Shown here one piece after another: positions 2,206-19,290 of a DNA stretch of 64,000 nucleotides. Where the stretch lies: sequence record LC788706.1; one strand, given 5' to 3'. The notes under the pieces are model-generated. The model had not been told where the DNA came from and did no database searches. It saw nothing but the letters and a program-made list of their open reading frames with translations. This stretch comes from Escherichia coli phage KS_S14. A program made the translations under genes and the position numbers. Within the stretch, counting starts at the first letter, position 1. Every line of letters begins with the position of its first letter.

Positions 2206-2234
2206 TTGCTATTCTGCTTAATTATCCGTATAAT
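2206..2234 (+). promoter_or_regulatory. sigma70-type early promoter (TTGCTA-17-TATAAT)
   Basis: Consensus -35/-10 with 17-bp spacer and AT-rich upstream. Confidence 0.6.
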
Positions 2235-2266
2235 ATATTTTATAAAGTGAAGAGAAGGAAAGCAAA

Positions 2267-2425
2267 ATGAAACACAAGATAGCTCAAGTTTTTATGGCAT
2301 TATGGTGTATGCCAATAGCTATAACAGCATTTAATCTAGATACTTTTACTATAGAAGAAAAATGTATCGGATTAGTTAGCGGCTTTAGTATGCTGGGCTT
2401 ATCTTTGTTGTGGTTGAAGAAATAA
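2267..2425 (+). CDS. small membrane protein (52 aa)
   Basis: ATG 33 nt after promoter -10 with GAAGGA RBS; hydrophobic; below ORF-track cutoff. Confidence 0.35.
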   Translation: MKHKIAQVFMALWCMPIAITAFNLDTFTIEEKCIGLVSGFSMLGLSLLWLKK

Positions 2426-2429
2426 TATT

Positions 2430-2507
2430 CTCCGTGTAGCTCAGTTTGGCCAGAGCGTTTCGTTTGGGGCGATAGGGTCGGGGGTTCAAATCCTCCCACG
2501 GAGACCA
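2430..2507 (+). tRNA. tRNA-Pro (anticodon TGG)
   Basis: Acceptor ctccgtg/cacggag, anticodon loop ttTGGgg, T-arm ggggg-ttcaaat-cctcc, CCA. Confidence 0.55.
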
Positions 2508-2513
2508 AACAAT

Positions 2514-2591
2514 TGCGGGTTAGATCTCTGGTAGAGATCGCTAGTCTCATAAGCTAGAAAGAGGTAGGTTCGATTCCTGCACCCGCTTCCA
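2514..2591 (+). tRNA. tRNA with CAT anticodon (Met or Ile2)
   Basis: Anticodon stem ctagt/gctag with loop ctCATaa, T-arm gtagg-ttcgatt-cctgc, CCA; 1-72 mismatch. Confidence 0.5.
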
Positions 2592-2611
2592 TTTTAATAG
2601 AGGATTTCGAA

Positions 2612-2776
2612 ATGAAAGTATTTCGATTAGTAGTAAGTGACAAACGGTCAGGTAAGAATACATCAAAATCCTTACTTGCCCATTATGGTAAAAATTGGGA
2701 TGAAGTAATGGCAGAGTTTAATACTAATCACCCTTACTTGAAAGTTCACTCTATTAAGGAAGTTTATGCTTATTAA
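2612..2776 (+). CDS. small hypothetical protein (54 aa)
   Basis: ATG with GAGGA RBS; stop overlaps start of next gene. Confidence 0.35.
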   Translation: MKVFRLVVSDKRSGKNTSKSLLAHYGKNWDEVMAEFNTNHPYLKVHSIKEVYAY

Positions 2777-3239
2777 CAGGGTGCTTCAAGCTCTAGATCT
2801 TCCAGAGCTCTTTACTATTACCGACCCCTTAATACATCGGTATATGGAAAAGTATAATGAAATCTCTGGTAAAAAAGGGAAACTAAAATCCTCAGAATTT
2901 AAGTTCTGTTATAGAATGGCAGCATTAAACCTCTTAAAGTACAAGAGGGAGCATAAAATCCCTATAACAGAAGGATTTGTCTATGTAATAGGTAATCCAG
3001 CATGGCCTGGACTATATAAGATAGGTATGACAGTAGATGTGAATGAAAGACTGTCTAGTTATCAAACATATTCGCCTTATCGTGATTACAAGTTATACCA
3101 TTTCAGATTCTCCTCGGACAAGAGAAGAACTGAAAAAGCATTACATAACCTTCTGAAGGACTACAAAGTATCAGGAGAATGGTTTGAAGTACCTCTGTTA
3201 GACGCCTTCAAACTATTAGTAGAAAATTTGGATTGCTAA
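2766..3239 (+). CDS. T5orf172-family (GIY-YIG-like) protein, paralog of 493..1011
   Basis: 157 aa; shares N- and C-terminal blocks with 493..1011; 3' end overlaps tRNA-Lys. Confidence 0.6.
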   Translation: MLINRVLQALDLPELFTITDPLIHRYMEKYNEISGKKGKLKSSEFKFCYRMAALNLLKYKREHKIPITEGFVYVIGNPAWPGLYKIGMTVDVNERLSSYQTYSPYRDYKLYHFRFSSDKRRTEKALHNLLKDYKVSGEWFEVPLLDAFKLLVENLDC

Positions 3240-3307
3240 CTCAACTGGATAAGAGTACCGGACCTTTAATCCGTCAGTTCTGGGTTCGAATCCCAGGCAA
3301 TCCACCA
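3230..3307 (+). tRNA. tRNA-Lys (anticodon TTT), tentative
   Basis: Acceptor ggattgc/gcaatcc, T-arm ctggg-ttcgaat-cccag, CCA; anticodon loop ccTTTaa with C at position 33. Confidence 0.5.
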
Positions 3308-3325
3308 ATTTCAAGAAAAACTCAG

Positions 3326-3354
3326 TTGCTTGATGCTTAATTTCTTGTTATAAT
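3326..3354 (+). promoter_or_regulatory. sigma70-type early promoter (TTGCTT-17-TATAAT) driving a non-coding transcript
   Basis: Consensus hexamers followed by ATAAATTGATGAGGAGAG box. Confidence 0.6.
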
Positions 3355-3361
3355 ATTTATA

Positions 3362-3592
3362 TAAATTGATGAGGAGAGATCCTCATCATAGTTCACTAAG
3401 GTATTAGCTCGACCTAGGACTGGCTGCCAAAAAGCACGATCCCTACGATTCGGGAGAAGTTCTAGATTAGTCCACTAGATTCAGCGGCAACTGAATAGTG
3501 TATTGGGTTTGCGAGATGACGCAGTTCCTTCCGCTCGAAGCGAAGGTGCTGTAGTTACGCCGAGCTAATAGCCTTAGTAAACTAAAGAATTT
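3362..3592 (+). ncRNA. promoter-driven structured RNA candidate upstream of tRNA-Ala
   Basis: Starts with perfect 7-bp hairpin gatgagg/cctcatc after the promoter; no ORF with RBS; further hairpins; ends at tRNA-Ala. Confidence 0.35.
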
Positions 3593-3671
3593 GGGGAATG
3601 GGTCTGCATGGAGTGGACACCTCGCTTGCACCGAGGACATCAGAACGGTTCGATTCCGTTATTCTCCACCA
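3593..3671 (+). tRNA. tRNA-Ala (anticodon TGC)
   Basis: Acceptor ggggaat/attctcc, anticodon stem cctcg/cgagg with loop ctTGCac, T-arm aacgg-ttcgatt-ccgtt, CCA. Confidence 0.6.
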
Positions 3672-3676
3672 AATAC

Positions 3677-3753
3677 GCGTGATTGATGGAATTGGCATAC
3701 ATACCGTCCTTAGAAGTCGGGTTTTGAGGGTTCGAATCCCTTGTCACGCACCA
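3677..3753 (+). tRNA. tRNA with TAG anticodon (Leu-type) but short variable region, atypical
   Basis: Acceptor gcgtgat/gtcacgc, T-arm gaggg-ttcgaat-ccctt, CCA; anticodon loop ctTAGaa; irregular D region. Confidence 0.45.
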
Positions 3754-3878
3754 AATTTGATGGTCAGAGTAAATTAAACCTACTATCTCGGTTGAGCTGT
3801 TTTAATGGGTTCGAATCCCAGCGAGGCGTAACTGCCTGGTGTGATAGAGGCATCATTCCACTAACATTGGAAAAACTA

Positions 3879-4109
3879 ATGAAACGAAAATTAAAAAAGT
3901 CTTATATAATTAAGATAAATAAGCTACGAAGTAGGGCAAAAGGATGGCCACTTCGAATATTAATTGCGGATAACCATACTAGATACCATGCGGAACAACG
4001 TCATTACAAACAGTGGGAGTCATACTGCCGCTCAAAAGCAGGTCGTTTAGATGGATCTTATGAGTTTCTATTTGGTAAGAAGCCTACTAGAGTAGCTTTA
4101 GGTAATTAG
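3879..4109 (+). CDS. small basic protein (76 aa)
   Basis: In-frame ATG inside ORF-track entry 3741..4109, whose upstream part is tRNA-like sequence; Lys/Arg-rich. Confidence 0.35.
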   Translation: MKRKLKKSYIIKINKLRSRAKGWPLRILIADNHTRYHAEQRHYKQWESYCRSKAGRLDGSYEFLFGKKPTRVALGN

Positions 4110-4114
4110 TACTT

Positions 4115-4205
4115 GGAAGAGCAAATCGAATTGGCGACGAAAACCGCTTGGAAAGTGGCTGACTGGTAAAACGGCTTGAGAGTTCAAATCTCTCCTCTTC
4201 CGCCA
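4115..4205 (+). tRNA. tRNA-Ser (anticodon GGA), class II
   Basis: Acceptor ggaagag/ctcttcc, anticodon loop ttGGAaa, long variable arm, T-arm gagag-ttcaaat-ctctc, CCA. Confidence 0.55.
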
Positions 4206-4217
4206 AACAATTTATAT

Positions 4218-4312
4218 GGTAGGTCAATCCAACGGCTGGCGCTGGACTCCGACTTGAAATCGGTTGATCGTAGTGATACGGTGTAAGGGTTCGATCCCCT
4301 TACCTACCTCCA
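4218..4312 (+). tRNA. tRNA-Ser (anticodon TGA), class II
   Basis: Acceptor ggtaggt/acctacc, anticodon loop ctTGAaa, long variable arm, T-arm aaggg-ttcgatc-ccctt, CCA. Confidence 0.55.
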
Positions 4313-4315
4313 AAT

Positions 4316-4451
4316 CTTGGAATATGCCGGAATTGGTAGACGGGACTGCCGAATAGGTTTACTAGGAACATCCACTCCTAGAAATATACCTTAAAAGCGG
4401 TTGAGTTAAATGGTCTAACTCATGAAGGTTCAAGCCCTTCTATTCCTTGAT
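4316..4451 (+). ncRNA. unresolved tRNA-like element (possibly class II tRNA with insertion)
   Basis: Leu-like D-loop gaattggtagac, hairpins ctagg/cctag and gagtta/taactc, perfect T-arm gaagg-ttcaagc-ccttc, no CCA; cloverleaf not resolved by hand. Confidence 0.3.
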
Positions 4452-4562
4452 ACATCAATGGCTCAAAGTGTAACGGTGCTATTTGATGCTCTTGGAAAGA
4501 CTTTCCCGACATGCGTTCGGGGGTAAGCTTCTGAGGCTAGAATAGAAGAGTTTCTGAGAGCC

Positions 4563-4682
4563 GCCACAATTGAAAATTCGTACTCGTCTTGAGCTGCGTG
4601 CAATAGGAGATAACTTGATTAGTATTCTAGAACATGCTAATTGAGGATGGTTTCGCTAACCCTGCGAGTTTTCAATTGTGGC
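4563..4682 (+). ncRNA. long-range stem structure (14-bp perfect inverted repeat) abutting tRNA-His
   Basis: gccacaattgaaaa at 4563-4576 pairs with ttttcaattgtggc at 4669-4682, enclosing about 90 nt; 3' arm overlaps tRNA-His 5' end. Confidence 0.3.
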
Positions 4683-4754
4683 TATATCATAATTGGTTAA
4701 TGATCCTGATTGTGAATCAGGCCTATGTGGATTCGAATTCCACTAGCCACCCCC
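4678..4754 (+). tRNA. tRNA-His (anticodon GTG)
   Basis: Acceptor gtggcta/tagccac, anticodon stem cctga/tcagg with loop ttGTGaa, T-arm gtgga-ttcgaat-tccac. Confidence 0.65.
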
Positions 4755-4780
4755 AAATTAACTTAAATAGGAAATAAAAT

Positions 4781-4981
4781 ATGGCTGATTTCTGCAAACA
4801 ATGCTCCATTGATATGTGGGGTAGAGATACTGGCGACTTATCTGGTCTGATTACAGAAGCCGAAGTCAAAGAAGGTTATGGTGCAGTTGTGGTTTGCGAA
4901 GGATGCGGAGTCATTCGAGTAGATCATGAAGGTAAGCGCCTTGAAGAACCTGAGCCAACCGCAATGGTTCCTGTAGAGTGA
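4781..4981 (+). CDS. small CxxC protein (zinc-ribbon-like)
   Basis: 66 aa; CKQC and CEGCG motifs; RBS present. Confidence 0.45.
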   Translation: MADFCKQCSIDMWGRDTGDLSGLITEAEVKEGYGAVVVCEGCGVIRVDHEGKRLEEPEPTAMVPVE

Positions 4982-4982
4982 A

Positions 4983-5564
4983 ATGAAATTAGAGAATTTT
5001 AAAGTAATCCCAGAATATCCAGAATACTTAATCTCTCCATATGGAGAGGTTTACTCTACTAAGAGTAATAAACTACTTACACATCATTTAGGCAGTGCAG
5101 GATACCCGTTTGTAACGTTCTATGAACAGGGTAAGAATGTTTCTGTTGTATTGCATAGATTATTGGCTAGAGTATTTAAAGATTTACCTTCGCTAGAATC
5201 TGAACTAGAGGTGGATCACAAAGATAGGAATAAATTGAACTTTACCCTAGATAATCTAGTTGTCATGACCAAGGAAGATCACAGAGTAAAAACTACACTT
5301 GAAAGAGGGCATACAGTAGGTGGTAGTAAATGTCCTTATTGTAATAAACAAATAAATTCTTCATCTAAAACTTGTTTTGATTGTAAACCTAAGAGTAGCC
5401 CTGATATTACAGCAGAGCAAATAGAATATTGGGTAATAAACTATTCATGGGTTAAAGCATCAAAAGAGCTGGGACTATCTGATAATGGTCTACGTAAACG
5501 TTATAAATCCTTAACAGGTAAAGATCCAAAAAGTATTAAGAAGAAGGTTAGCCAAGTCGGTTAA
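4983..5564 (+). CDS. HNH homing endonuclease
   Basis: 193 aa; EVDHKDRNKLNFTLDNL HNH motif and C-terminal CxxC..CxxC; 3' end overlaps tRNA-Gln. Confidence 0.65.
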   Translation: MKLENFKVIPEYPEYLISPYGEVYSTKSNKLLTHHLGSAGYPFVTFYEQGKNVSVVLHRLLARVFKDLPSLESELEVDHKDRNKLNFTLDNLVVMTKEDHRVKTTLERGHTVGGSKCPYCNKQINSSSKTCFDCKPKSSPDITAEQIEYWVINYSWVKASKELGLSDNGLRKRYKSLTGKDPKSIKKKVSQVG

Positions 5565-5617
5565 GGCTGGGGTCTCTGAAATCCTGATCAGTGGTTCGAA
5601 TCCACTACCTTCTGCCA
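5542..5617 (+). tRNA. tRNA-Gln (anticodon CTG)
   Basis: Acceptor agaaggt/accttct, anticodon loop ctCTGaa, T-arm agtgg-ttcgaat-ccact, CCA. Confidence 0.55.
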
Positions 5618-5623
5618 AACAAT

Positions 5624-5701
5624 TGGGGATTAGCTTAGCTTGGCCTAAAGCTTCGGCCTTTGAAGTCGAGATCATTGGTTCAAATCCAATATCCCCTGCC
5701 A
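5624..5701 (+). tRNA. tRNA-Gln (anticodon TTG)
   Basis: Anticodon stem tcggc/gtcga with loop ctTTGaa, T-arm attgg-ttcaaat-ccaat, CCA; 1-72 mismatch. Confidence 0.55.
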
Positions 5702-5708
5702 AATAATC

Positions 5709-5784
5709 GCGGTTAAGCACACGGGTTGTGCCGCAGGCCTTCCAAGCCTCGCTGAGTAGGGTTCGATTCCCTCTAGCCGCTCCA
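5709..5784 (+). tRNA. tRNA-Gly (anticodon TCC)
   Basis: Acceptor gcggtta/tagccgc, D-stem gcac/gtgc, anticodon loop ctTCCaa, CCA. Confidence 0.6.
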
Positions 5785-5800
5785 ACTTTAAGGAAACACT

Positions 5801-6022
5801 ATGCACGTTTTTGAGTTTCGTAATAAGAGTACTGATAAGCGAGTTATCATTATTGGAGAAACATATCGAGCATATGAACAAACTGACGGCTCTGTTATCT
5901 TGAATGATGAGAAAGGAGGTTTTAGCTTTTATCCAGAAGAAACGTATGAAGAATTTCGTACTAAGTTTCTTTTACCAGACTGGCTAGCAGTAGCCGAGCA
6001 ACGAGAATCCGAAGATGGCTGA
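5801..6022 (+). CDS. hypothetical protein
   Basis: 73 aa ORF with AAGGAAA RBS. Confidence 0.5.
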   Translation: MHVFEFRNKSTDKRVIIIGETYRAYEQTDGSVILNDEKGGFSFYPEETYEEFRTKFLLPDWLAVAEQRESEDG

Positions 6023-6179
6023 TAACCTAAAATTAAAGGTTGACAAACAAAAGAAATACGTTGAGATTGAATTAGGCGAAGAACGCTTAAAGCTAACTTT
6101 CGAGTTTCTTCAGCAGTTGGCAATGACAGTAATGTCAGATAAATCCCCTGTATTTGAAAAAGAAATTCCGTTGAAATAA
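6015..6179 (+). CDS. small hypothetical protein (54 aa)
   Basis: ATG overlaps stop of upstream gene; below ORF-track cutoff. Confidence 0.35.
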   Translation: MADNLKLKVDKQKKYVEIELGEERLKLTFEFLQQLAMTVMSDKSPVFEKEIPLK

Positions 6180-6189
6180 CGGGTTTATT

Positions 6190-6264
6190 GCTCCTAAAGC
6201 ATTGCTGGTGATGCAGTTGCCTTGTAAGCATCTGAACCGGGTTCGATTCCTGGTGGGAGCACCA
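6190..6264 (+). tRNA. tRNA-Thr (anticodon TGT)
   Basis: Acceptor gctccta/tgggagc, D-stem gcat/atgc, anticodon loop ctTGTaa, T-arm ccggg-ttcgatt-cctgg, CCA. Confidence 0.6.
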
Positions 6265-6279
6265 AATTTAAAAATTCAT

Positions 6280-6308
6280 TTGCTTTCTCTCTTATTTATT
6301 GCTATAAT
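6280..6308 (+). promoter_or_regulatory. sigma70-type early promoter (TTGCTT-17-TATAAT)
   Basis: Consensus hexamers; downstream ATAAATTAATGAGAGG box then RBS and ATG at 6339. Confidence 0.6.
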
Positions 6309-6338
6309 ATTTATATAAATTAATGAGAGGGAAACCAA

Positions 6339-6629
6339 ATGAAACGTTATCTTTCTGTAGTATTCCAAACTGGTGGCCAAAGGTACACCTATGAATTTCC
6401 ATCTTCTTGGAAAATCAAAGAGGGTGATCAAGTAGTAGTGCTAACACCGCGTGAAGGATATAAAGTAGTAACGGTTAAACAAGTATTTCCAAAAGATCAT
6501 GAACCAGCTAAAGGCATCCGCTATAAGATGATTCATGGTGTGGTTCGTCAAGTACCACGAACTGAGGTAGAAGTAGATAAGGCTGGAGAAACTAAATTCC
6601 ATTATACTTCTTACTTAGACAGTGTGTGA
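6339..6629 (+). CDS. hypothetical protein
   Basis: 96 aa ORF immediately after consensus promoter. Confidence 0.5.
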   Translation: MKRYLSVVFQTGGQRYTYEFPSSWKIKEGDQVVVLTPREGYKVVTVKQVFPKDHEPAKGIRYKMIHGVVRQVPRTEVEVDKAGETKFHYTSYLDSV

Positions 6630-6644
6630 TGTAAATATTTTAAT

Positions 6645-6721
6645 GCTTCGGTAGCTTAGCGATCTAAAGCACTCGGCTGATAACCGAGAGATCGGGGGTT
6701 TAAATCCCTCCCGGAGTACCA
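6645..6721 (+). tRNA. tRNA-Ile (anticodon GAT)
   Basis: Acceptor gcttcgg/ccggagt, anticodon stem ctcgg/ccgag with loop ctGATaa, T-arm ggggg-tttaaat-ccctc, CCA. Confidence 0.65.
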
Positions 6722-6818
6722 AATTTAGGAATTAAGACTATGCGTCCAGGAAAGTTTAAAAAAAGCTAATTGGTCTAAAGAGTATAAAGAATACTTACTT
6801 AGTCTAGTAAAACATAAC

Positions 6819-6894
6819 AGTTAGTTGGCAGAGTGGTTATGCACCTCCTTCATACGGAGCGACTACAGTGGTTCAAATCCACTACTAACTACCA
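6819..6894 (+). tRNA. tRNA with CAT anticodon (Met or Ile2)
   Basis: Acceptor agttagt/actaact, anticodon stem ctcc/ggag with loop ttCATac, T-arm agtgg-ttcaaat-ccact, CCA. Confidence 0.55.
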
Positions 6895-6931
6895 TTAAAA
6901 TAGCTAGAGATAGCTAAATTTAGGAGCAGCT

Positions 6932-7126
6932 ATGTTAACAATTAAAATAATGTCAGCCAAGAATGGTGAACATATCCATACGGGCAAAAGCGTAAGCTTT
7001 AATCCTAGAAATAAGAGATTGGCTATAGTTGGAGTAGATCAAGCCATCTTTTTAAAAGAAGATGAAGTAGCATACGTCATGAACCAAACTGGTAAGACAG
7101 TTTCCGTATACTATGGAAAAGTATAA
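6932..7126 (+). CDS. hypothetical protein
   Basis: 64 aa ORF with AGGAG RBS. Confidence 0.45.
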   Translation: MLTIKIMSAKNGEHIHTGKSVSFNPRNKRLAIVGVDQAIFLKEDEVAYVMNQTGKTVSVYYGKV

Positions 7127-7168
7127 AGAATAAAGAGCTGAGCCAAATTCTAACATCGGGGAGATCTA

Positions 7169-7537
7169 ATGAAAGCATATCAAAATCTTAAATCTGGCGT
7201 AATTAACCTTGTTCATGAAAATCAGATTATTCAGCTATATTCCGACAACGGTGAACTTAAACAGAAAGTTCTAGTTGAAGATCTAGAAGGTATCACACCA
7301 CAATTCGATCCTGAAGCCTTCCGTGAAGTTAAGGTGGAAGTCGCCCCTCAAATCGAAGGTGGTCAGCACCTAAATGTCAATGTGTTAAGCCGTGATCAGC
7401 TTTTGGATGCGCAGAAACATCCTGAAAAATACCCTCAATTAACTATCCGTGTTTCAGGGTACGCTGTGCGTTTTAACGCACTGACGCGTGAACAGCAGAA
7501 CGACGTTATTAGTCGTACATTTACTCAGGCGATGTAA
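7169..7537 (+). CDS. grcA: autonomous glycyl-radical cofactor (GrcA/YfiD-like) protein
   Basis: 122 aa; C-terminus [10 protein letters not shown]...[23 protein letters not shown] matches the glycyl-radical signature RVSGYAV of GrcA. Confidence 0.7.
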
Positions 7538-7618
7538 TGGGGCTTGGATACGGTTTCTACGAACTACGTAAGGTAGTCGAGCAAACTCCATTTATCTCCC
7601 AAGTTTTAGGAGAAATGT

Positions 7619-7933
7619 GTGGATCGAGCATTAAGACGTCATCACCGGCAACGTGTAAAGAACAACCGCAAGAAGTATTGGACAGTCTTCCCACATGAAG
7701 AAAGCCCTAAACGGTTAGGTATTATCACTACTACTCCTTGTATCTGTTCTTGTTGGATGTGCGGGAATCCTCGCAAATACTTTAAGAATAGTAAAGCAGG
7801 GATGAAAACCTCGGAGATTAGGAAAATGGAAGCAATGATTACGGATATTTCAAATGATGAATTTGATGGCTTTGTAGGATTCGGAGAAGGAATTAGCTCA
7901 GGCTGTTTCGAAGATGTACGCCCCGATTTGTAA
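7619..7933 (+). CDS. hypothetical Cys-rich protein
   Basis: 104 aa ORF, probable GTG start; followed by terminator. Confidence 0.4.
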   Translation: MDRALRRHHRQRVKNNRKKYWTVFPHEESPKRLGIITTTPCICSCWMCGNPRKYFKNSKAGMKTSEIRKMEAMITDISNDEFDGFVGFGEGISSGCFEDVRPDL

Positions 7934-7944
7934 TTAATAACAAA

Positions 7945-7978
7945 CCCCAGCTATTGAATAGGTAGTCTGGGGTTTTTC
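7945..7978 (+). terminator. rho-independent terminator
   Basis: Stem ccccag...ctgggg followed by T5 run. Confidence 0.6.
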
Positions 7979-8054
7979 TGTATACAGGTAGATAATTTAT
8001 GTATAATAAAATTCATCCACATTAGGTTAATTTAAAAAACTTAATGGAGGTAAT

Positions 8055-8402
8055 ATGAGCCGTACTTATCGTAAACAATCTGGTGATCAGTGGTGGAAGT
8101 CTAAAGAACAATTCTCTCAAGAATATTCTTTCATCAAAGAAAATGGCTACTGGATTCGTGTTATTTATGCCAAATCTTGGGACGACATCAAAAAAGAAAT
8201 GAAGGAAGCAACCATTCGTAATGAGAAAAAGGATGGTTATAACTGGAATTCTGTTAGTAAGAATGTTAAGTGGCATTCTAATAAAATGGTTCGTCAAGGG
8301 AATCGTCAAGAACTCCACCGCGTGATGAAAGATCCAGAAAATTACGACTATAATCGCGATCATGACATGCGTAAGCGTGGATTATGGTGGTGCTACGACT
8401 AA
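8055..8402 (+). CDS. hypothetical protein
   Basis: 115 aa ORF with GGAGG RBS. Confidence 0.5.
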   Translation: MSRTYRKQSGDQWWKSKEQFSQEYSFIKENGYWIRVIYAKSWDDIKKEMKEATIRNEKKDGYNWNSVSKNVKWHSNKMVRQGNRQELHRVMKDPENYDYNRDHDMRKRGLWWCYD

Positions 8403-8419
8403 TTTCTGAAATAATTCAT

Positions 8420-8448
8420 TTGCTAAACCTCTCTTTTCTTGTTATAAT
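8420..8448 (+). promoter_or_regulatory. sigma70-type early promoter (TTGCTA-17-TATAAT)
   Basis: Consensus hexamers with downstream ATAAATTGATGGGAGAGG box. Confidence 0.6.
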
Positions 8449-8478
8449 ATATTTATAAATTGATGGGAGAGGTTTGAA

Positions 8479-8760
8479 ATGAAAACTCGTCTAGACTGTG
8501 CTATCCACGTTGTCGAGCATAGTGTTGTTGGAACCTGTATGTCTTACCATGAGGCAGGTCGCTTAATTAAAGAACGTGTGGCAGATGTATGTGGATTGAA
8601 GATTACTGCTGAGGAAGCTGATGATCTTTTAGGCCAAGCACTTGAGAAAACCGAAATATTCCTCTGTGATTCTTGTTCTTGGTGGTGTGAAGCTCACGAA
8701 CATTCCTTCAATGATTATGATGTATGCCGTGACTGTAATGAGGAAGATACTGATGAATAA
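8479..8760 (+). CDS. hypothetical acidic Cys-rich protein
   Basis: 93 aa ORF after promoter; CDSCSWWC...CRDC motifs. Confidence 0.5.
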   Translation: MKTRLDCAIHVVEHSVVGTCMSYHEAGRLIKERVADVCGLKITAEEADDLLGQALEKTEIFLCDSCSWWCEAHEHSFNDYDVCRDCNEEDTDE

Positions 8761-9995: not shown

Positions 9996-10105
9996 AGAAC
10001 TCGCGTAGGACCGAGTTGCGTCACCTGCAACTGTTACGGATAAGGGGCACGACTCCCTTAGTGCGGTAAGTGGTGAGGTGGCTGCTAGCCCTAACTGGAG
10101 ATAAT

Positions 10106-11993: not shown

Positions 11994-12745
11994 TGTCAGT
12001 ATTAGTCGGTTTACATGGCGGGGCAGGTGCAGGAAAAGATACCGTTGCAAAATTAATTATCGATTGGTGTAACGACACGTATCCAATGTATTTAGCCCGT
12101 CGTTATAGTTTTGCTAAGCCCGTTTATGAACTTGCATCCGTAATCCTCGGTGTAACTCCAGAGTTTCTAGGAGAGCGCAGGGGGAAAGAGATTGACCAAT
12201 GGTTTACGGTCACACAATCTCAATTGGAGCGAGCTAGAGACGTATGGTTTAAATACGGTATCGATAAGTTTGAAGACTTCTCGTACGTTTGGCCGATTTT
12301 TGAGGAAAAATATCTTAATCCTCAACAACTTATCTCAGAGAATAAAGAAGACGGACTTTATAGTTTATTTATTTCTCCAAGAAAAATGTTACAGCTCGTA
12401 GGGACAGAGCTAGGAAGGCAGCTGGTGCATGAACGCATTTGGCTCATAATTCTGGAGCAATCCATCGCTAAAGACGACCCAGATGTCGCCGTAATAACAG
12501 ATGTTAGATTCCCCAATGAAGGAGAGCTACTCAGAGAAACAAACCATTTAGATATGGATTCTTTGATAGTAAATGTAGTACCAGCTAAGCAGAAGTTCAC
12601 TATTAAATCAGATCATCCATCTGAAAGTGGTATTCCTGCAAAATATATTACTCACGAATTAGTTAATAAATTCGATGGTATCAATAACCTTAAACTAGAA
12701 GTTTATAACTTCTGTGACTTAGAGCTAGAACCACTAGTTGGATAA
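11993..12745 (+). CDS. P-loop kinase, probable deoxynucleoside monophosphate kinase
   Basis: 250 aa; Walker A GGAGAGKDT near N-terminus; size as recalled for T5 dNMP kinase. Confidence 0.5.
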   Translation: MSVLVGLHGGAGAGKDTVAKLIIDWCNDTYPMYLARRYSFAKPVYELASVILGVTPEFLGERRGKEIDQWFTVTQSQLERARDVWFKYGIDKFEDFSYVWPIFEEKYLNPQQLISENKEDGLYSLFISPRKMLQLVGTELGRQLVHERIWLIILEQSIAKDDPDVAVITDVRFPNEGELLRETNHLDMDSLIVNVVPAKQKFTIKSDHPSESGIPAKYITHELVNKFDGINNLKLEVYNFCDLELEPLVG

Positions 12746-12757
12746 TCAAGGATCGCT

Positions 12758-13357
12758 ATGACTAATAAAAAAGAAGAAAAGACTAACCTGTTTCACTCCA
12801 TTCGCCAATCTAATGAGTATACCTTTTTCTTTGATGAAGAACTCGGTCCGCCGGATGAATACCGTGATTTATCAATGGTACTTATGCAAGCAAATGAGGA
12901 CGACGAAATTAATCTGATGATTAATGGTCCAGGTGGTTATGTTGATACTGCTGCACAGTTATCTAACTTAATTGCTAATTGCCGTGGAACAGTTATAGGA
13001 CATCTGGTTGGTCCTAGTGCTTCTGCTTACTGCACAATTTTCCTATCCTGTCATGGATGGGTAGTACATCCACATGCTACGCTAATGGGACACACGTTCT
13101 CTGGCGGATTCTGTGAGAAAGGTCAAGAAATCAAGAAAGCCTATGAATCTTACAACAAGTTCGTAGAAGATATGATGCTAGATGTCTACTATCCGTTCTT
13201 CTCAATAGATGAAATAGACGAGATGGTAAAAGACAACAAAAATATCTATCTAGATAGCAAGGAAATTCATAAGCGTATTGAAATCTTGGCGAAATATAGA
13301 TCTGAGCAATATAATAAAATGCAGTTAACTCAATCTGAGAAGCACAACGAAGAGTAA
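12758..13357 (+). CDS. ClpP-like serine protease (S14 family)
   Basis: 199 aa; INGPGG, GPSASAY and GHTFSGG motifs resemble ClpP. Confidence 0.55.
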   Translation: MTNKKEEKTNLFHSIRQSNEYTFFFDEELGPPDEYRDLSMVLMQANEDDEINLMINGPGGYVDTAAQLSNLIANCRGTVIGHLVGPSASAYCTIFLSCHGWVVHPHATLMGHTFSGGFCEKGQEIKKAYESYNKFVEDMMLDVYYPFFSIDEIDEMVKDNKNIYLDSKEIHKRIEILAKYRSEQYNKMQLTQSEKHNEE

Positions 13358-13367
13358 GTAATTTTAA

Positions 13368-13397
13368 GCCAGGGTTAAGTACCCTGGCTTTTCTTTT
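13368..13397 (+). terminator. rho-independent terminator
   Basis: Stem agccaggg...ccctggct followed by T-rich run. Confidence 0.6.
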
Positions 13398-13459
13398 ATC
13401 TAAAATTCTTCTTGACAACGACATAATTTTATGCTCCAAGTGTAACATTTAAAAACCCA

Positions 13460-13488
13460 TTGAAATTTTCCTCCAAAATTAGTATAAT
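13460..13488 (+). promoter_or_regulatory. sigma70-type promoter (TTGAAA-17-TATAAT)
   Basis: Hexamers with 17-bp spacer; GAGGAGG RBS follows. Confidence 0.5.
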
Positions 13489-13513
13489 GGTACTGGTTAG
13501 AGGAGGTTACAAA

Positions 13514-14170
13514 TTGGAAAAGTTCTTACAATTATTAACAGTACTGCTCCAAGAAGCGAAAGACCCAGCATCGCTTCTTAAACGTCTGCTAACTATCTTA
13601 GTTGCTGTCATTATTTTCTTATTTGTTAGTAATACTAGTGAAGTAATGTCATTCTTAAAGACTTTTTCCACGTCTGCAGTTTTACAGGATTTACAAACCC
13701 AGAGGATAGATAACTTCCCTAATGTGGCGAGGGAAAAGAGCATGGTTCTCTTCTCTCAGACGGGTGCAGATGCTGTTTTTGTAGTCAAGTATAAACCAGA
13801 TGCTATCAATGATTATTCCAATATTATTGCATGGGAAAGTAATGCGCAATTAGATAGGGCTGACTTGGCCGATAAAGCGGTAAATAAAACGTCTGAATTA
13901 TACAGACGTCATTTAGAGGGCTTTAACTACGCATCGGATTTAAGTGTAAGAGTAAATAAATATATGGGGTTAAATATACCTGCGTTTAAAAACGTTACTT
14001 TTAATTACATATACACTTGTCCATACTTCAATCTAAAAAATATCTATGCTGGGTACATTGGTATTGCTTGGAAAGATAATCCGGTAGATACAGCTGATTC
14101 TGAACAGTTCAAGGAATATTTAGCAAAGCTCTGTTCCCCACAACAGAGATCTTTAGGTAGGTCAATATGA
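13514..14170 (+). CDS. holin candidate (membrane-anchored, 218 aa from TTG start)
   Basis: TTG 7 nt after GAGGAGG RBS; ORF-track ATG at 13460 lies upstream of the -10 so cannot be the start; TM helix; directly upstream of endolysin. Confidence 0.45.
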   Translation: MEKFLQLLTVLLQEAKDPASLLKRLLTILVAVIIFLFVSNTSEVMSFLKTFSTSAVLQDLQTQRIDNFPNVAREKSMVLFSQTGADAVFVVKYKPDAINDYSNIIAWESNAQLDRADLADKAVNKTSELYRRHLEGFNYASDLSVRVNKYMGLNIPAFKNVTFNYIYTCPYFNLKNIYAGYIGIAWKDNPVDTADSEQFKEYLAKLCSPQQRSLGRSI

Positions 14171-14580
14171 GTTTTAAATTTGGTAAAAATAGCGAAAAAC
14201 AATTAGCTACCGTTAAGCCCGAGCTACAAAAAGTAGCTCGTAGGGCTTTAGAATTATCTCCGTATGATTTCACAATCGTGCAAGGTATTCGTACAGTAGC
14301 ACAAAGTGCCCAGAACATTGCTAATGGTACTTCATTTCTAAAAGATCCTAGTAAAAGCAAACATATTACTGGGGATGCTATTGATTTTGCTCCATATATT
14401 AATGGCAAAATTGATTGGAATGACTTAGAAGCATTTTGGGCAGTTAAAAAGGCTTTTGAACAAGCTGGTAAAGAACTAGGCATTAAACTTCGTTTTGGTG
14501 CTGATTGGAATGCTTCGGGAGACTATCACGATGAAATAAAACGTGGTACCTATGATGGCGGTCATGTAGAACTAGTTTAA
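14167..14580 (+). CDS. endolysin, L-alanyl-D-glutamate peptidase type
   Basis: 137 aa; length and position after holin as recalled for T5 endolysin; start overlaps holin stop. Confidence 0.55.
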   Translation: MSFKFGKNSEKQLATVKPELQKVARRALELSPYDFTIVQGIRTVAQSAQNIANGTSFLKDPSKSKHITGDAIDFAPYINGKIDWNDLEAFWAVKKAFEQAGKELGIKLRFGADWNASGDYHDEIKRGTYDGGHVELV

Positions 14581-14657
14581 TTAATAACTTAGGCGGGAAT
14601 ATTCCCGCCTTTTTAGGCAAAGGGGGCTTTAATAATTTTTGAAGATAGGAGAAAGCC

Positions 14658-15074
14658 ATGTTTGCAGAACTATTCACTATGATGCTGCTAGGTATCTGGA
14701 AAATAAGTCTAGTAGTATTCGTTTTAATGATAGTCTTTACTATCCTTGCATTAACTACCCGAAATAGCTTATTAATAAAGGTTATTCACGGACTAGAGTA
14801 TATAATTATGGGTTCATTCGGCGTTTGTAAATGCAATTGCCATAGAGATACGAAATATTGTTGGTTATGGATGGAACTAGAGAATCCTATATCCATAGCT
14901 TTAGCTGTTTCATTCGGTATGATTCTTATGGCCCTTACTCTAGCATTGATACCTTTGATGTTAGCTGGGGGAGTTACAGCGTATTTCATCCTTTTCTCCC
15001 CGATACTTATGTACTCAATTTACCCAATAACTATGTATCTAGTTAGGAAAAGATTTATACATGCAGTAGATTAA
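14658..15074 (+). CDS. multi-pass membrane protein
   Basis: 138 aa, several hydrophobic helices. Confidence 0.45.
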   Translation: MFAELFTMMLLGIWKISLVVFVLMIVFTILALTTRNSLLIKVIHGLEYIIMGSFGVCKCNCHRDTKYCWLWMELENPISIALAVSFGMILMALTLALIPLMLAGGVTAYFILFSPILMYSIYPITMYLVRKRFIHAVD

Positions 15075-15087
15075 GATAAAAAAGTAG

Positions 15088-15116
15088 TTGACTTTTAGCC
15101 CTAGTTATTATATAAT
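15088..15116 (+). promoter_or_regulatory. sigma70-type early promoter (TTGACT-17-TATAAT)
   Basis: Consensus hexamers; downstream ACATAAATTAG box. Confidence 0.55.
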
Positions 15117-15149
15117 ATATACATAAATTAGTTAAGAGAGGTATATATT

Positions 15150-15581
15150 ATGTCTGATCGTTTCTACACTCAAATGGCGGAACATTTTCGTATACCACAT
15201 TACGAGCTAAACATTGCACTCCGTGATCATGACTCTCCTGAGTACAAAAAGCTCGAAAAGAAAGCGGAAAAATCTATTGATACAAAGGTAGGTGCATCTA
15301 TGTCTAAGGGCAAAAAGTTAACTCGTCTTGATCTTAATAAAATTTTAACTGAACTTTTGGGTACGGATATTGAAGGTGCTAAATTACCACTTCTTGTACT
15401 AGAGACTATGATTAAAAAGGTCAAAAATAAAGAATATAAGAAGGTAGAAGTCCCGGAAGGCAGATTAAAGGCTCCTTATCAGGAAGCATTAACCGAGTGT
15501 TTGGGTGTAAATCTTGATCTGAGCACCGCAACCGTAAAAACTATGAAAAACTTCTTAGAGGCCATTAATAACTATGAGTAA
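15150..15581 (+). CDS. hypothetical protein
   Basis: 143 aa ORF after promoter. Confidence 0.5.
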   Translation: MSDRFYTQMAEHFRIPHYELNIALRDHDSPEYKKLEKKAEKSIDTKVGASMSKGKKLTRLDLNKILTELLGTDIEGAKLPLLVLETMIKKVKNKEYKKVEVPEGRLKAPYQEALTECLGVNLDLSTATVKTMKNFLEAINNYE

Positions 15582-15864
15582 ATTAGTATATCTATTGAAA
15601 GGTTCTACTTGTAACCCGTGTAAACTTTTCGAACCTGTGTTTGATAAAGTAGTCAATGACTATAATTTGGAAATCCATAAAGAGACTGATAATACAGAAT
15701 TAATGCAGAAATTTGGTGTACGCCAAGTTCCCGTAGTAGTTCTGGCGGATCGCTTACCTAATGGTCGAGTAGAAGCTAATCATATTTTGATTGGACGTCA
15801 GCTTCGTAAAGAAACTATGCACGAAGCTATTAAAAATTTCCTGGATGATAATCCAGAGGATTAA
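15574..15864 (+). CDS. thioredoxin/glutaredoxin-like protein
   Basis: 96 aa; CNPC redox motif near N-terminus. Confidence 0.5.
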   Translation: MSKLVYLLKGSTCNPCKLFEPVFDKVVNDYNLEIHKETDNTELMQKFGVRQVPVVVLADRLPNGRVEANHILIGRQLRKETMHEAIKNFLDDNPED

Positions 15865-15871
15865 TAAACCA

Positions 15872-15900
15872 AGCCTGATCTTAGCGGATCAGGCTTTTAT
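15872..15900 (+). terminator. rho-independent terminator
   Basis: Stem agcctgatc...gatcaggct followed by TTTTAT. Confidence 0.6.
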
Positions 15901-15904
15901 TTTA

Positions 15905-15934
15905 CTTGCTTTTTGCTAAAAATTTTGGTATAAT
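15905..15934 (+). promoter_or_regulatory. sigma70-type early promoter (TTGCTT-18-TATAAT)
   Basis: Hexamers plus ATAAATTGATGAGAAGG downstream box. Confidence 0.55.
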
Positions 15935-15991
15935 ACTTATATAAATTGATGAGAAGGCTATCTACGCACTACAAGAAATAGGAGTATTCCA

Positions 15992-16369
15992 ATGAACTAT
16001 GCATACCTTATTATTAATAATAACGTAGTTTGTGGTACTCGCGCTGTTGAGATGGGTATTACAGAAGAAAAGTATAAGTCACTTCCAGAAAAAGAACAAC
16101 AATATTATGTTGAAGAAGCTGCTTGGGAGTATGCTGAGGTTTATCCCGAAGAACGTGAAGATCGTCTTACTCTTGTTGTGTCTCTGGGTTTGGTTGGCTG
16201 TGATACCGAAGTTGATACAGACTTAGGGACTTTGGAGGAGTGGGAAGAGTTAGATATCTCAGCTAAAAACTCCTTAATCCGTGAAGCCTTTTGGGAAGCT
16301 GTAGATTGCCACGTAGTATTTGAGCCTAATGATGAAGAGGCTGAAAAACATACTAACCATTGGAGATAA
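15992..16369 (+). CDS. hypothetical acidic protein
   Basis: 125 aa ORF after promoter. Confidence 0.5.
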   Translation: MNYAYLIINNNVVCGTRAVEMGITEEKYKSLPEKEQQYYVEEAAWEYAEVYPEEREDRLTLVVSLGLVGCDTEVDTDLGTLEEWEELDISAKNSLIREAFWEAVDCHVVFEPNDEEAEKHTNHWR

Positions 16370-16373
16370 TTAA

Positions 16374-16619
16374 ATGTTAGCAGAGCAAGCAAAACATTTA
16401 GCTAGAGTTAATAGAGCTGCTCTTCTCAAGAGCAGAAAGAAACCGTATAGATACGTTAAAAGACGGATTATATCTTCTGTAGAATGTGGTGGTTCTTATG
16501 TGCAGTTTAACCGTGACGAAATTAGCTATGAAGCTATAAAATCCCTCTATAAAGAGGGTTATACTCTAAAACTATCAAATAATTATGGTACAACTATTTT
16601 AAATGTTATTTGGGAATAA
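16374..16619 (+). CDS. hypothetical protein
   Basis: 81 aa ORF. Confidence 0.4.
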   Translation: MLAEQAKHLARVNRAALLKSRKKPYRYVKRRIISSVECGGSYVQFNRDEISYEAIKSLYKEGYTLKLSNNYGTTILNVIWE

Positions 16620-16621
16620 TT

Positions 16622-17485
16622 ATGAAAAAAGAATTTAATGTACATAAAACACTAGTAGTACCTGATGATGTTAACTTATTCTTTGTTGGCGATATTCATG
16701 GATGCAACGATTTGCTAGAAGATGCGTTGAAATTAGCTGGATATAACGGCAAGAAAGATTGCGTTGTATGTGTAGGGGATTTAATTGACCGAGGCACGCA
16801 GAATCTACAAGTTCTAGCTAAATTCCTGTATAACCCACGCTTTATCAGTGTCCGTGGAAACCACGACCAGTTTATGATTGTGGGAGATTGGGCTAATTGG
16901 ATGTATAACGGTGGTATGTGGGCTATGAATGAACTAGATGCAGATACCATTAAAAATATTGCCGAAGACATGGCTGAAAAAATGCCAGTATTCCTAACTG
17001 TGCTGCATCGTGGCAAGAAATATGGTGTTGTTCATGGTGGTGTACCTTTTACGTACAAAGAATGTGGTAACGAAGTAGAAACCCCAGTATGGGGTAACCT
17101 TATTGCACAAGTAGAAGCAGCTAAGGAAGACCCACATGACCATCCTGGATACCATGTTGAACCATACTTATGGGATCGAGATGTAATTCAAGAAATAGGT
17201 TTCCATTTGTCCAAAAATGGTGAGGAACACTCGTATTTCCAGCGTTATGCAGGATTTAAAGAGAAATACATGGTAGAAGTACCTCCAGTTAGTGGAGTAG
17301 ACTTTGTGTTTCACGGACATACTGGAGTACCTTACCCTATTTTATACCAGAATCGTGTTTACCTAGATACTGGCGGTGTTTTCAACGGGCAGTTGACGGT
17401 TGCGCAGGTTAACGATGAAACTGGCAAAATCACCACATTTACCACAGATAAAAATGATAGCTGCGGTGTACAGAGGATCCTTTAA
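16622..17485 (+). CDS. Ser/Thr protein phosphatase (calcineurin-like)
   Basis: Motifs GDIHGC, GDLIDRG, RGNHD; start moved to ATG at 16622. Confidence 0.7.
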   Translation: MKKEFNVHKTLVVPDDVNLFFVGDIHGCNDLLEDALKLAGYNGKKDCVVCVGDLIDRGTQNLQVLAKFLYNPRFISVRGNHDQFMIVGDWANWMYNGGMWAMNELDADTIKNIAEDMAEKMPVFLTVLHRGKKYGVVHGGVPFTYKECGNEVETPVWGNLIAQVEAAKEDPHDHPGYHVEPYLWDRDVIQEIGFHLSKNGEEHSYFQRYAGFKEKYMVEVPPVSGVDFVFHGHTGVPYPILYQNRVYLDTGGVFNGQLTVAQVNDETGKITTFTTDKNDSCGVQRIL

Positions 17486-17781
17486 TGAATGATAGAATGA
17501 AAGAAGTACAAGAAGAATTACGAGCAATGCGTATTGATGCCCTTCGTTGGAGGGCATTAGTTAATGCTTTCGTCAAAGGAGATACCGGAGTAATATATTC
17601 TGGAATAGCAGTCAATTTTTGTTTTAATTCTCCTGCTGAAATAGAAATAGAAACAAGGCTTACTACCTATCTTAATGAGGTAGACCTTAAGGAAGGAGAG
17701 ATTCCCGAGGAGTTTAAAACTAGAGTATTAACTACCTGGGTTGATAATTTATACAAAAAAGGAGTAAGTGATGAAGGTTAA
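17485..17781 (+). CDS. hypothetical protein
   Basis: 98 aa ORF. Confidence 0.45.
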   Translation: MNDRMKEVQEELRAMRIDALRWRALVNAFVKGDTGVIYSGIAVNFCFNSPAEIEIETRLTTYLNEVDLKEGEIPEEFKTRVLTTWVDNLYKKGVSDEG

Positions 17782-18361
17782 ATTCTGGTCAGACTTGCAC
17801 TTAGACCACCCTGGAGCACTACGTTTCCGTCCGTGGTTTAAGAACATGAAAGAGCACGATGAGTATATTCTAGATACTTTGTCCAAGCATATTGGTAAAC
17901 GAACAAAACTTATTTTGCTAGGAGATATTGCAGTAGGTCGTGAAGGTCTGGCCAAATTAAAGTCGGTTATCCACAATGTCCCTAATCAACTCATTATGGG
18001 TAATCATGATGCGGAGCGTCAAGGGCTGAGTATTAGGGACTTAGCGGAAGTTTATGACGATATTCAAGCTCTAGGCAAACAGACTGGAGGTGGCAAAAAG
18101 TTTTGGCTATCTCACTGCCCTTTGCATCCCAATGAACTTCGTGGCAAACTAAATATTCACGGACATGTACATACTACTTCCCTACGTGATCCACGTTATA
18201 TTAATGTCTCATTTGAAATGAGTAAAACTCCAATTCCGCTAGAGGATATTGTGTCTGGTAAGTTTACTAGTTATGATAGAGTAGTTAATTGTACTACCGG
18301 CGAAGTATTACAAATAGGGGAAGATGTAGCTGCTGTATTACGTGGCGATATAAATGTATAA
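17771..18361 (+). CDS. calcineurin-like metallophosphoesterase
   Basis: Motifs DLHLDHPG, GDIAVG, GNHD, GHVHT. Confidence 0.6.
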   Translation: MKVKFWSDLHLDHPGALRFRPWFKNMKEHDEYILDTLSKHIGKRTKLILLGDIAVGREGLAKLKSVIHNVPNQLIMGNHDAERQGLSIRDLAEVYDDIQALGKQTGGGKKFWLSHCPLHPNELRGKLNIHGHVHTTSLRDPRYINVSFEMSKTPIPLEDIVSGKFTSYDRVVNCTTGEVLQIGEDVAAVLRGDINV

Positions 18362-18468
18362 GTATATAGCCGAGGCTATTATTAAACGAATCATACAAGC
18401 AGTAGCAATACTTATAATCATTTGTACTGCTATTGGCACAGGATTAGGCATTTTAATTGAAAGTTTTA

Positions 18469-18498
18469 TTTGCTAAAATGCTTAAGTTTCTGTATAAT
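18469..18498 (+). promoter_or_regulatory. sigma70-type early promoter (TTGCTA-18-TATAAT)
   Basis: Hexamers plus ATAAATTGATGAGAAGG box. Confidence 0.55.
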
Positions 18499-18528
18499 TA
18501 CTTTATAAATTGATGAGAAGGAATCAAA

Positions 18529-18960
18529 ATGAACAAAGTTGATAAAGCTCTAGTTTTCGCAGCAGCAGATAAGTTTGAACAAGTTAAGGCAACTTTCCGA
18601 ACCTTGTTCCAGTCTTACGTTCAGGATAAGTCTAATCCTATCTCTGAACGTTTGATGGTCTGGGAATGTCATGCTTGCAATGCCCTATTAATTGCGGATT
18701 ATCGTAGTGATATAGATAAAGATCTTTGTGAAATCCTTATCCCCGAGGAAGCAGAACGTTATCAGTTAATATCTTTCCAAGATTTGGCGGAGCATATCAT
18801 TCCTGATGATCTTTGGGATAAATACTATGGTGATCCTGAAGATGAAGGAATGACTCCAGAAGCCTGTATTGAGCTGATCTGCAAAGATCATCCTGAAATT
18901 GCAGAGAAATTTGAAAAAGTTTTTGCTTCTGAGTTCTCCGGCGTTGTTAACGATTGGTAA
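18529..18960 (+). CDS. hypothetical protein
   Basis: 143 aa ORF after promoter. Confidence 0.5.
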   Translation: MNKVDKALVFAAADKFEQVKATFRTLFQSYVQDKSNPISERLMVWECHACNALLIADYRSDIDKDLCEILIPEEAERYQLISFQDLAEHIIPDDLWDKYYGDPEDEGMTPEACIELICKDHPEIAEKFEKVFASEFSGVVNDW

Positions 18961-18977
18961 GTAATTAAAAAATTCAG

Positions 18978-19006
18978 TTGCTTTAAGCCTTAAAATTCTG
19001 TATAAT
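18978..19006 (+). promoter_or_regulatory. sigma70-type early promoter (TTGCTT-17-TATAAT)
   Basis: Consensus hexamers plus ATAAATTAATGAGAGAGG box. Confidence 0.6.
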
Positions 19007-19038
19007 AAGTTCATAAATTAATGAGAGAGGAAATTCTA

Positions 19039-19290
19039 ATGGAAAACATGACTAAAAACGAAATGGCTAACGTTCTGGCAATTCTCCTCGACATGCAGGG
19101 TTTTGAAGGACAGCTCATGAAGATGTCTATTCCGGCGATGAAAAAGATGTATGATTCTCTGAATAAGAATGCTATGGCGTTCAACCTTGCAAAACAGGAA
19201 GCTCGTTTTGCTAAAGAGCATCAAGCGACTGCCGAACGTCGTGCAGCATCTTTTGAGCGTGAAGTTAAGCAACTGAAAGGTAAGAAATAA
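19039..19290 (+). CDS. hypothetical protein
   Basis: ORF-track start 19021 lies inside the promoter downstream box; ATG at 19039 follows an RBS. Confidence 0.45.
   Translation: MENMTKNEMANVLAILLDMQGFEGQLMKMSIPAMKKMYDSLNKNAMAFNLAKQEARFAKEHQATAERRAASFEREVKQLKGKK

Follow-up and report, generated by a model that had tools for sequence, protein, structure and literature searches.

Why do at least ten promoters of one phage resemble each other so closely, up to and beyond the point where transcription begins? In a stretch of 64,000 nucleotides (nt) from Escherichia coli phage KS_S14 (LC788706.1; this whole stretch is the window), an initial annotation had noted a family of near-identical sigma-70 promoters between positions 2206 and 19040, most of which share a conserved downstream box. 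We find that this box has two components. Its head, ATAAATTG/A (+1 to +8), and the purine richness that follows belong to the promoter, while its GAGG core is a ribosome-binding site that moves with the start codon. We consider it highly probable that each site is a tight-binding, escape-limited sigma-70 promoter in which a conserved initial transcribed sequence secures clearance and doubles as 5' untranslated region (5'UTR) and ribosome-binding site.

A family of extended promoters

All ten of the promoters first listed were found at their places, and their coordinates stand apart from two -35 hexamers that were placed 1 nt off and start at 15906 and 18470 (we keep 15905 and 18469 as the names of these sites). 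The core TTGCT-N17-19-TATAAT occurs nine times in the window where 0.41 is expected, a count that no shuffled sequence attained; the scored members have a 17-bp spacer, and sites 10545 (TTGCAT) and 15088 (TTGACT) have variant -35 hexamers. The downstream box had been ascribed to most sites, and we observed it in full at 3326, 6280, 8420, 15905, 18469 and 18978 and in part at 2206, 15088 and 10545 (variants in Table 1); at 13460, the promoter of the holin operon, ATAAATT is missing. Allowing up to two mismatches, TAAATTRATGAGAGG has seven matches against 0.54 expected, each directly 3' of a TATAAT hexamer and six of them on the + strand within the range noted at first, and TATAAT-N5-8-ATAAAT occurs 10 times in the window against 0.35 expected. 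A scan of the window with the generic sigma-70 consensus gave no enrichment (54 sites versus 63 in shuffles), indicating that the signal is a specific extended motif and not promoter-like sequence in general.

Because a position weight matrix trained on the window itself would be circular, we used in its place an independent one trained only on T5 promoters at 40-67 kb of the T5 genome, a part non-homologous to the window, with a reporting threshold of score 12. With this matrix, 11 sites in the window score 29.7-55.7, while the best score in 20 shuffles is 13.8. ATAAATT at +1, followed by a purine-rich tract, is likewise found at 11 sites and not at 13460, which can be placed outside the box subfamily. 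Three members are additional to those first listed: 163-214 (+), 35848-35899 (-), and a partial one with a poor -35 at 29085-29112 (-). The last of these and the holin promoter at 13460 fall below score 12 with the independent matrix. An A-rich block around -43, 5' of the -35 hexamer (consensus tAAAAATT), has high information content in each of three promoter sets, those of the window, of T5 and of Vibrio phage Pontus, and agrees with a -43 element already in print (PMC3326045).

Judged by its closest genomes, all of which are Tequintavirus, the window can be assigned to a T5-like phage of this genus (Demerecviridae). A megablast query with positions 2000-20000 matched 584 phage records, with Escherichia phage Baret at 95.3% identity and phages phiLLS and AKFV33 at 93.7%. 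The + strand of the window is the opposite of the standard T5 orientation; the early region extends from 1 to ~24 kb, the pre-early and terminal-repeat region from ~24 to 35 kb, and the late region from near 35.5 kb. Genes for lysis, a deoxynucleoside monophosphate (dNMP) kinase and a phosphatase lie in the early region, as does a cluster of 14 tRNAs (398-6894). T5-like sequence at 97-100% identity also occurs in short contigs or genomes labelled Listeria phage LM (OR847284, OR848287, OR846838) and in an UNVERIFIED record for Campylobacter phage A148 (MG065642); these records are most likely contaminants or mislabelled.

Correspondence with the T5 early promoters

In the T5 record AY587007, each position orthologous to a window site carries a 70-bp "putative early promoter" (T5P8 to T5P18), and the stretches of -10 plus box are assigned to the repeat families a, b and c. 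The RefSeq record of T5 (NC_005859) contains the same promoters, some under the historical names P-F30, P11, P13a, P13b and P14b, and several of these are identical to the window copies from -35 to -10. The T5 early promoters (PN25, P25, P26, P28 and others; T5P8-T5P38 in AY587007) have the -43 A-block, TTGCTT, 17-bp spacer, TATAAT, A/T-rich discriminator, ATAAATT and purine tract, and the window copies match them in genomic position, orientation and downstream genes, with identical or near-identical sequence from -35 to -10. The differences, a few sequence changes and one open reading frame (ORF) inserted after the 15905 copy, are not differences in kind. The assignment of the sites as promoters is thus borne out by their orthology with annotated T5 early promoters and their paralogy with the experimentally characterised PN25.

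PN25 is the "T5 promoter" of the pQE expression vectors. Its 70-nt sequence matches T5 at 100%, where it is annotated as T5P33 and "repeat c copy 6"; it maps to 63.1 kb of T5, outside the window, and a search of the window at up to three mismatches gave no match to it. Studies of the T5 early promoters are said to include those of Gentz & Bujard in 1985 and Kammerer et al. in 1986. For phage vB_EcoS_AKFV33, Niu et al. 2012 described 32 promoters with TTGCTw, a spacer of 17-18 bp, TATAATA, and AT-rich sequences at -43 (AAAAATT) and +1 (TAAATT) (PMC3326045). This consensus, from a phage 93.7% identical to the window, is exactly the motif of the initial annotation; that work left the SD (Shine-Dalgarno) half and the initial-transcribed half of the box unseparated, and they are separated below. 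A literature search found no transcription start site or RNA-seq mapping for T5. The motif of the window can be equated with the standard, textbook T5-type early promoter family, already described and annotated, and carries little weight as a discovery, its extended consensus having been described since the 1980s and annotated in reference genomes.

Anatomy of the box

Transcription of PN25 starts at the A of ATAAATT (TATAAT-AGATTC-ATAAATTTGAGAGAGGAG); the published -12/+2 oligonucleotide is TATAATAGATTCAT (PMC7472727). By homology, the box would span +1 to +17, in agreement with the proposal that it extends past the transcription start. It had also been suggested that the box could be a translation-initiation element, and this applies to its 3' half, which in nine of the 11 box members is the SD sequence of the first cistron: an SD core (GAGG, AGGA, GGAG, GGGA or GAGA) lies at +13 to +17, and a start codon at +23 to +28, 6-8 nt past the SD, opens an ORF of 52-232 amino acids. 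This spacing fails at 3326, where no ORF follows, and at 15905, where a long leader of 51 nt contains a second SD and the start codon (ATG 15992) is at +52.

We pooled 44 promoters, taken from the window, from the part of T5 not homologous to it, and from Pontus. An SD core is present within +9 to +20 in 26 of the 28 promoters with a start codon at or before +30, and in only 4 of the 16 in which the start codon is farther away or absent. Those 16 promoters nevertheless have a purine content of 0.80 from +8 to +18, compared to 0.54 on the + strand of window positions 1-24000, and 10 of them retain ATAAATT (at most one mismatch). The SD core follows the start codon while the head and the purines persist without it; the box is therefore composite.

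A 12-bp palindrome, ATTTATATAAAT, covers -6 to +6 in some copies (3326, 6280) and not in others, and the box has no consistent dyad or direct repeat. The predicted folds of most mRNA leaders (minimum free energy, MFE, 0 to -6.6 kcal/mol) are no more stable than those of shuffled sequence; in the leader of the 163 promoter, a weak hairpin (-5.1 kcal/mol, z = -2.8) spans the start codon, 3' of the SD core. We considered the box as an RNA structure and rejected this for the mRNA leaders, which are unstructured.

The head could alternatively act mainly as RNA and not on DNA and polymerase: as the A/U-rich 5' end of the leader it might enhance translation by attracting ribosomal protein S1, or it might determine mRNA 5'-end stability. 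The leaders are short (22-27 nt) and unstructured with an A/U-rich 5' end, and in mRNA promoters the head is always ~5 nt upstream of the SD, both of which would suit such a role. However, promoters without a nearby ORF, namely the 3326 tRNA/RNA2H promoter, repc3, repc7 and P30 of T5, and Pontus 21354, conserve the head just as well, making an RNA-level enhancer unlikely as its main role. The effect of the corresponding PN25 sequence is, moreover, seen in purified transcription systems that contain no ribosomes (PMC12464699).

The box as initial transcribed sequence

The composition of the sites is instead consistent with the escape-limited promoter proposed above, in which each site would be a compact expression cassette used by unmodified host sigma-70 RNA polymerase. 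The A-rich block at about -46 to -38 (AAAAATTCA) may act in the manner of an UP element and, together with the -35 TTGCT(T/A), the 17-bp spacer, the perfect TATAAT and an A/T-rich discriminator of 6-7 nt, would lead to a very tight hold on the polymerase. Transcription would start at the A of ATAAATT, as in PN25, which would make the box, from +1 to +17, the initial transcribed sequence. The A/T-rich invariant head of the box and the purine-rich non-template tract (+8 to +18) would then favour promoter clearance instead of abortive cycling. In the mRNA, the same purine tract would supply the SD core (GAGG, AGGA or GGAG, +13 to +17) in an unstructured leader. With this cassette shared among them, all early operons would open with one common module of promoter, 5'UTR and ribosome-binding site. 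At the 3326 copy, the SD-like half would be paired in the 5' hairpin that heads RNA2H, and a role for this hairpin is one that we infer.

The escape step is modelled on N25. When +3 to +20 of N25 are replaced ("anti"), productive synthesis falls ~10-fold, and the native sequence gives the fastest escape, at +11 (PMC12464699). Kammerer et al. 1986 are reported to have found a >10-fold effect in vivo, and productive yield correlates with purine content (PMC5961368). The box of the window differs from the initial transcribed sequence of N25 at one or two places and is likewise purine- and A/T-rich; the escape mechanism studied by the Hsu laboratory with N25 and N25anti was measured for N25 only (PMC12464699). 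The anatomy and conservation of the window copies are observed here, while their start site and escape effect would be carried over from PN25 by analogy.

This dependence on PN25 for both the start positions and the mechanism is the first of several points that weigh against the proposal. The exact ATGAGAGG variant is a subfamily trait, annotated as "repeat b" in the T5 record, so that near-identity may in part reflect paralogy and not selection. The SD-like tract is kept at 3326 and 15905, where no start codon lies at the expected distance, and an SD role alone is insufficient to account for it. Finally, the footprint between orthologues is modest (0.91 versus 0.78; see below).

Conservation in relatives and the history of the copies

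The box had been proposed to be specific to this phage group, and its absence from the homologous promoters of relatives, which would have spoken against this, is not observed: it is present in Salmonella phage Stitch (Epseptimavirus), Klebsiella phage Sugarland (Sugarlandvirus) and Vibrio phage Pontus (Ermolyevavirinae, Thalassavirus). It is group-specific, being carried by Tequintavirus, Epseptimavirus, Sugarlandvirus and the Vibrio Thalassavirus, and in T5 none of the pre-early or late promoters examined has it. Stitch is ~72% identical to the window over a promoter-centred query of 551 nt and shares its promoters, position for position; in 12 orthologous promoter pairs, identity is 0.90-0.92 over -10 to +14 and ~0.78 in the flanks. 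In Sugarland, an orthologue of the 3326 promoter is present. In Pontus, only the ~80-nt promoter segment of the 551-nt query was matched, yet 40 kb of this phage contain 14 copies of TTGCT-N17-19-TATAAT (0.17 expected) and seven of TATAAT-N5-8-ATAAAT (0.09 expected). The Pontus consensus is AATTGCTAAA...TATAAT-AGTTAC-ATAAATTGA, followed by a purine-rich SD and ATG, and one copy reads ATAAATTGATGAGAGAGG. Conservation of the cassette into Vibrio phages of another subfamily suggests selection on the initial transcribed sequence.

Near-identity could alternatively be mainly historical, with paralogous copies generated by duplication, gene conversion or recombination, perhaps serving as junctions for module shuffling, and selection acting only on the -10 hexamer and the SD. 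The marking of -10 plus box as repeat families in the T5 record and the restriction of ATGAGAGG to one subfamily are both compatible with copying. In addition, three of 24 breakpoints in the similarity between the window and T5 (223, 3316 and 15957) lie within ~30 nt of a box promoter, where ~0.85 would be expected, although this enrichment amounts to three events only. At one of them, similarity to T5 stops at 15957, the end of the 15905 box, and resumes at 16369; between these points is an extra ORF of 125 amino acids (15992-16369) with its own SD. We take these breakpoints as a slight indication that promoter cassettes may serve as junctions in recombination.

A comparable arrangement is reportedly known from the PeSL (promoter-early stem-loop) cassettes of T4-type phages (Arbiol et al. 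in 2010). These are similar in that repeated early promoters, sometimes placed after a terminator hairpin, flank small variable ORFs, and a few mosaic junctions coincide with them; they differ in that the sequences are unrelated, and in that a recombination role in the window would be based on three junctions. Selection is favoured over copying by the persistence of ATAAATT and purine richness in the Vibrio phage and at promoters whose SD has shifted, as well as by the functional data on the N25 initial transcribed sequence (PMC12464699). We consider a mainly historical origin quite improbable.

Class specificity and a possible phage-encoded factor

The T5 pre-early promoters P1, P2, P4 and P5 and the late promoters P39, P40 and P42 are without TTGCT and ATAAATT, while the early promoters P38 and P41 (llp) carry both. 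In the window, the promoter at 35837-35912 (-) is the sole early-type promoter inside the late region, and it precedes a gene for a Cor/Llp-like receptor-blocking lipoprotein that is divergent from the gene for the receptor-binding protein. The llp promoter of T5 (T5P41), annotated as early, has the same position and role.

This class specificity, and the retention of the box across hosts as far apart as Escherichia and Vibrio, could indicate that a phage-encoded factor that times or shuts off the early class recognises the ATAAATTGA head along with the discriminator and -35 typical of early promoters, which would act as an operator or as the target of a polymerase modifier. According to Klimuk et al. 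2020, the discriminator is the main difference between T5 early and late promoters, and gpT5.026 loosens the hold of the polymerase on -5 to +2 and reduces the amount of early transcripts, the mechanism of the class switch being stated to be unknown; yet the target of gpT5.026 is the beta subunit of the polymerase and not DNA (PMC7472727). The two-step transfer of T5 DNA accounts for early timing, and the box lacks consistent symmetry, its palindrome being confined to some copies. Early promoters of T5 other than PN25, in work from the Bujard laboratory, are reportedly strong with E. coli polymerase alone. PN25 itself is strong under the same conditions (PMC12464699, PMC3326045). We regard a site for a timing or shut-off factor as very unlikely. 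A combined possibility, in which the ATAAATTGA head and the A/T discriminator are the cis-element for a conserved Demerecviridae shut-off factor (for example gpT5.026 and a partner), and/or the ~70-bp cassettes are recombination junctions of early modules, is a long shot.

The RNA2H leader of the tRNA operon

The 3326 promoter, which is followed by no ORF, precedes a structured leader of 232 nt (3361-3592) with an MFE of -87.4, compared to -58.2 +/- 4.5 for shuffled sequences (z = -6.55). In an alignment of nine T5-like phages, 16 of its 67 predicted base pairs show compensatory changes, and the long closing helix has six double changes in Sugarland; this covariation supports a conserved fold. 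The leader corresponds to the known T5 gene for RNA2H: NC_005859 annotates a 172-nt rna2H at 31808-31979, between P13b and tRNA-Ala, as a "stable RNA with unknown functions". Rfam has no family for it; only tRNAs or noise were returned, both for 1-40000 at the gathering threshold and for 3300-3700 with E values up to 10. A hypothetical coding sequence annotated over the leader on the minus strand in Baret and Sugarland is probably spurious.

A hairpin at the 5' end of the leader, at 3367-3388 (+) (-13.8 kcal/mol, z = -3.8), joins CCUCAUC to the SD-like part of the box, GAUGAGGAG, so the SD-like tract is sequestered here, unlike in the mRNA leaders. The hairpin is kept in the eight Markadamsvirinae aligned, with A-U changed to G-U in three and a mismatch in T5, and it is missing in Sugarland, where +1 leads directly into the closing helix.

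Inventory of promoters and neighbouring features

The coordinates of all sites are given in Table 1. The box of the 18978 promoter contains an ATG at 19021 (+9), in frame with the likely start at 19039, and mechanical ORF calls begin inside this box.

Table 1. Promoters of the window and the leader RNA; scores are from the independent T5-derived matrix unless indicated, and +1 positions are predicted.
Feature	Coordinates	Strand	-35	-10	+1	Box	Start codon or context	T5 counterpart	Score
Early promoter	150-222	+	TTGCTT 163-168	TATAAT 186-191	198	198-214	ATG 220	T5P18 / 'P14b'	29.7
Early promoter	2193-2269	+	TTGCTA 2206-2211	2229-2234; 7-nt discriminator	2242	variant ATAAAGTGAAGAGAAGG	ATG 2267	T5P17 / 'P13a'	40.7
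tRNA-operon early promoter	3313-3388	+	3326-3331	3349-3354	3361	3361-3377	no ORF after	'P13b'	45.3
Structured leader RNA from 3326 promoter	3361-3592	+					ends at tRNA-Ala (3593)	misc_RNA rna2H	
Early promoter	6267-6341	+	6280-6285	6303-6308	6315	6315-6331 (exact-consensus copy)	ATG 6339	T5P16 / 'P11'	52.6
Early promoter	8407-8481	+	8420-8425	8443-8448	8455	8455-8471	ATG 8479	T5P14	41.0
Early promoter, divergent	10532-10607	+	TTGCAT 10545-10550	10568-10573	10580	ATAGATTGAGGCAATAGG	ATG 10605	T5P13	43.1
Holin-operon promoter	13447-13516	+	TTGAAA 13460-13465	13483-13488		no ATAAATT box	strong SD GAGGAGG, then TTG start	T5P12	
Early promoter	15075-15152	+	TTGACT 15088-15093	15111-15116	15123	ATAAATTAGTTAAGAGAGG	ATG 15150	T5P11	31.8
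Terminator hairpin 15871-15896, then early promoter	15871-15994	+	15906-15911	15929-15934	15941	15941-15957	ATG 15992	T5P10	51.4
Early promoter	18457-18531	+	18470-18475	18493-18498	18505	18505-18521	ATG 18529	T5P9 / 'P-F30'	45.9
Early promoter	18965-19041	+	18978-18983	19001-19006	19013	19013-19030	likely start ATG 19039	T5P8	55.7
Partial member, pre-early / terminal-repeat region	29084-29136	-	poor, TTAGCT	perfect, 29112-29107		ATAAATTAATGAGAAAT from 29100	no nearby ORF		33.2 (self-trained matrix)
Early-type promoter in late region	35837-35912	-	TTGCTT 35899-35894	35876-35871	35864	ATAAATTAGAAATGGAGAG	ATG 35839	T5P41 (llp)	52.8

The partial member at 29112 (-) is kept in phage Stitch; we tested whether it is T5P4, and the two are not the same. 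Just downstream of this weak promoter, three perfect DnaA boxes (TTATCCACA) lie inside 82 nt (28953-29034, -). Further perfect copies occur at 17967 and 25164 (+), for a total of five in the window against 0.65 expected. At 39538-39605 (+), a weak match to the matrix (20.2) has an extended -10, TGTATACT, a -35 TTTACA and no ATAAATT box, and may be a late-class promoter.

Implications

Two results are of modest value beyond the known consensus: the clean division of the box into a promoter-intrinsic head and purine tract, on the one hand, and an SD core that follows the start codon, on the other; and the extension of the same cassette to Vibrio phages of another subfamily. A third point of modest value concerns the switch from early to late transcription in T5, for which a cis-element confined to one promoter class is a reasonable starting point.

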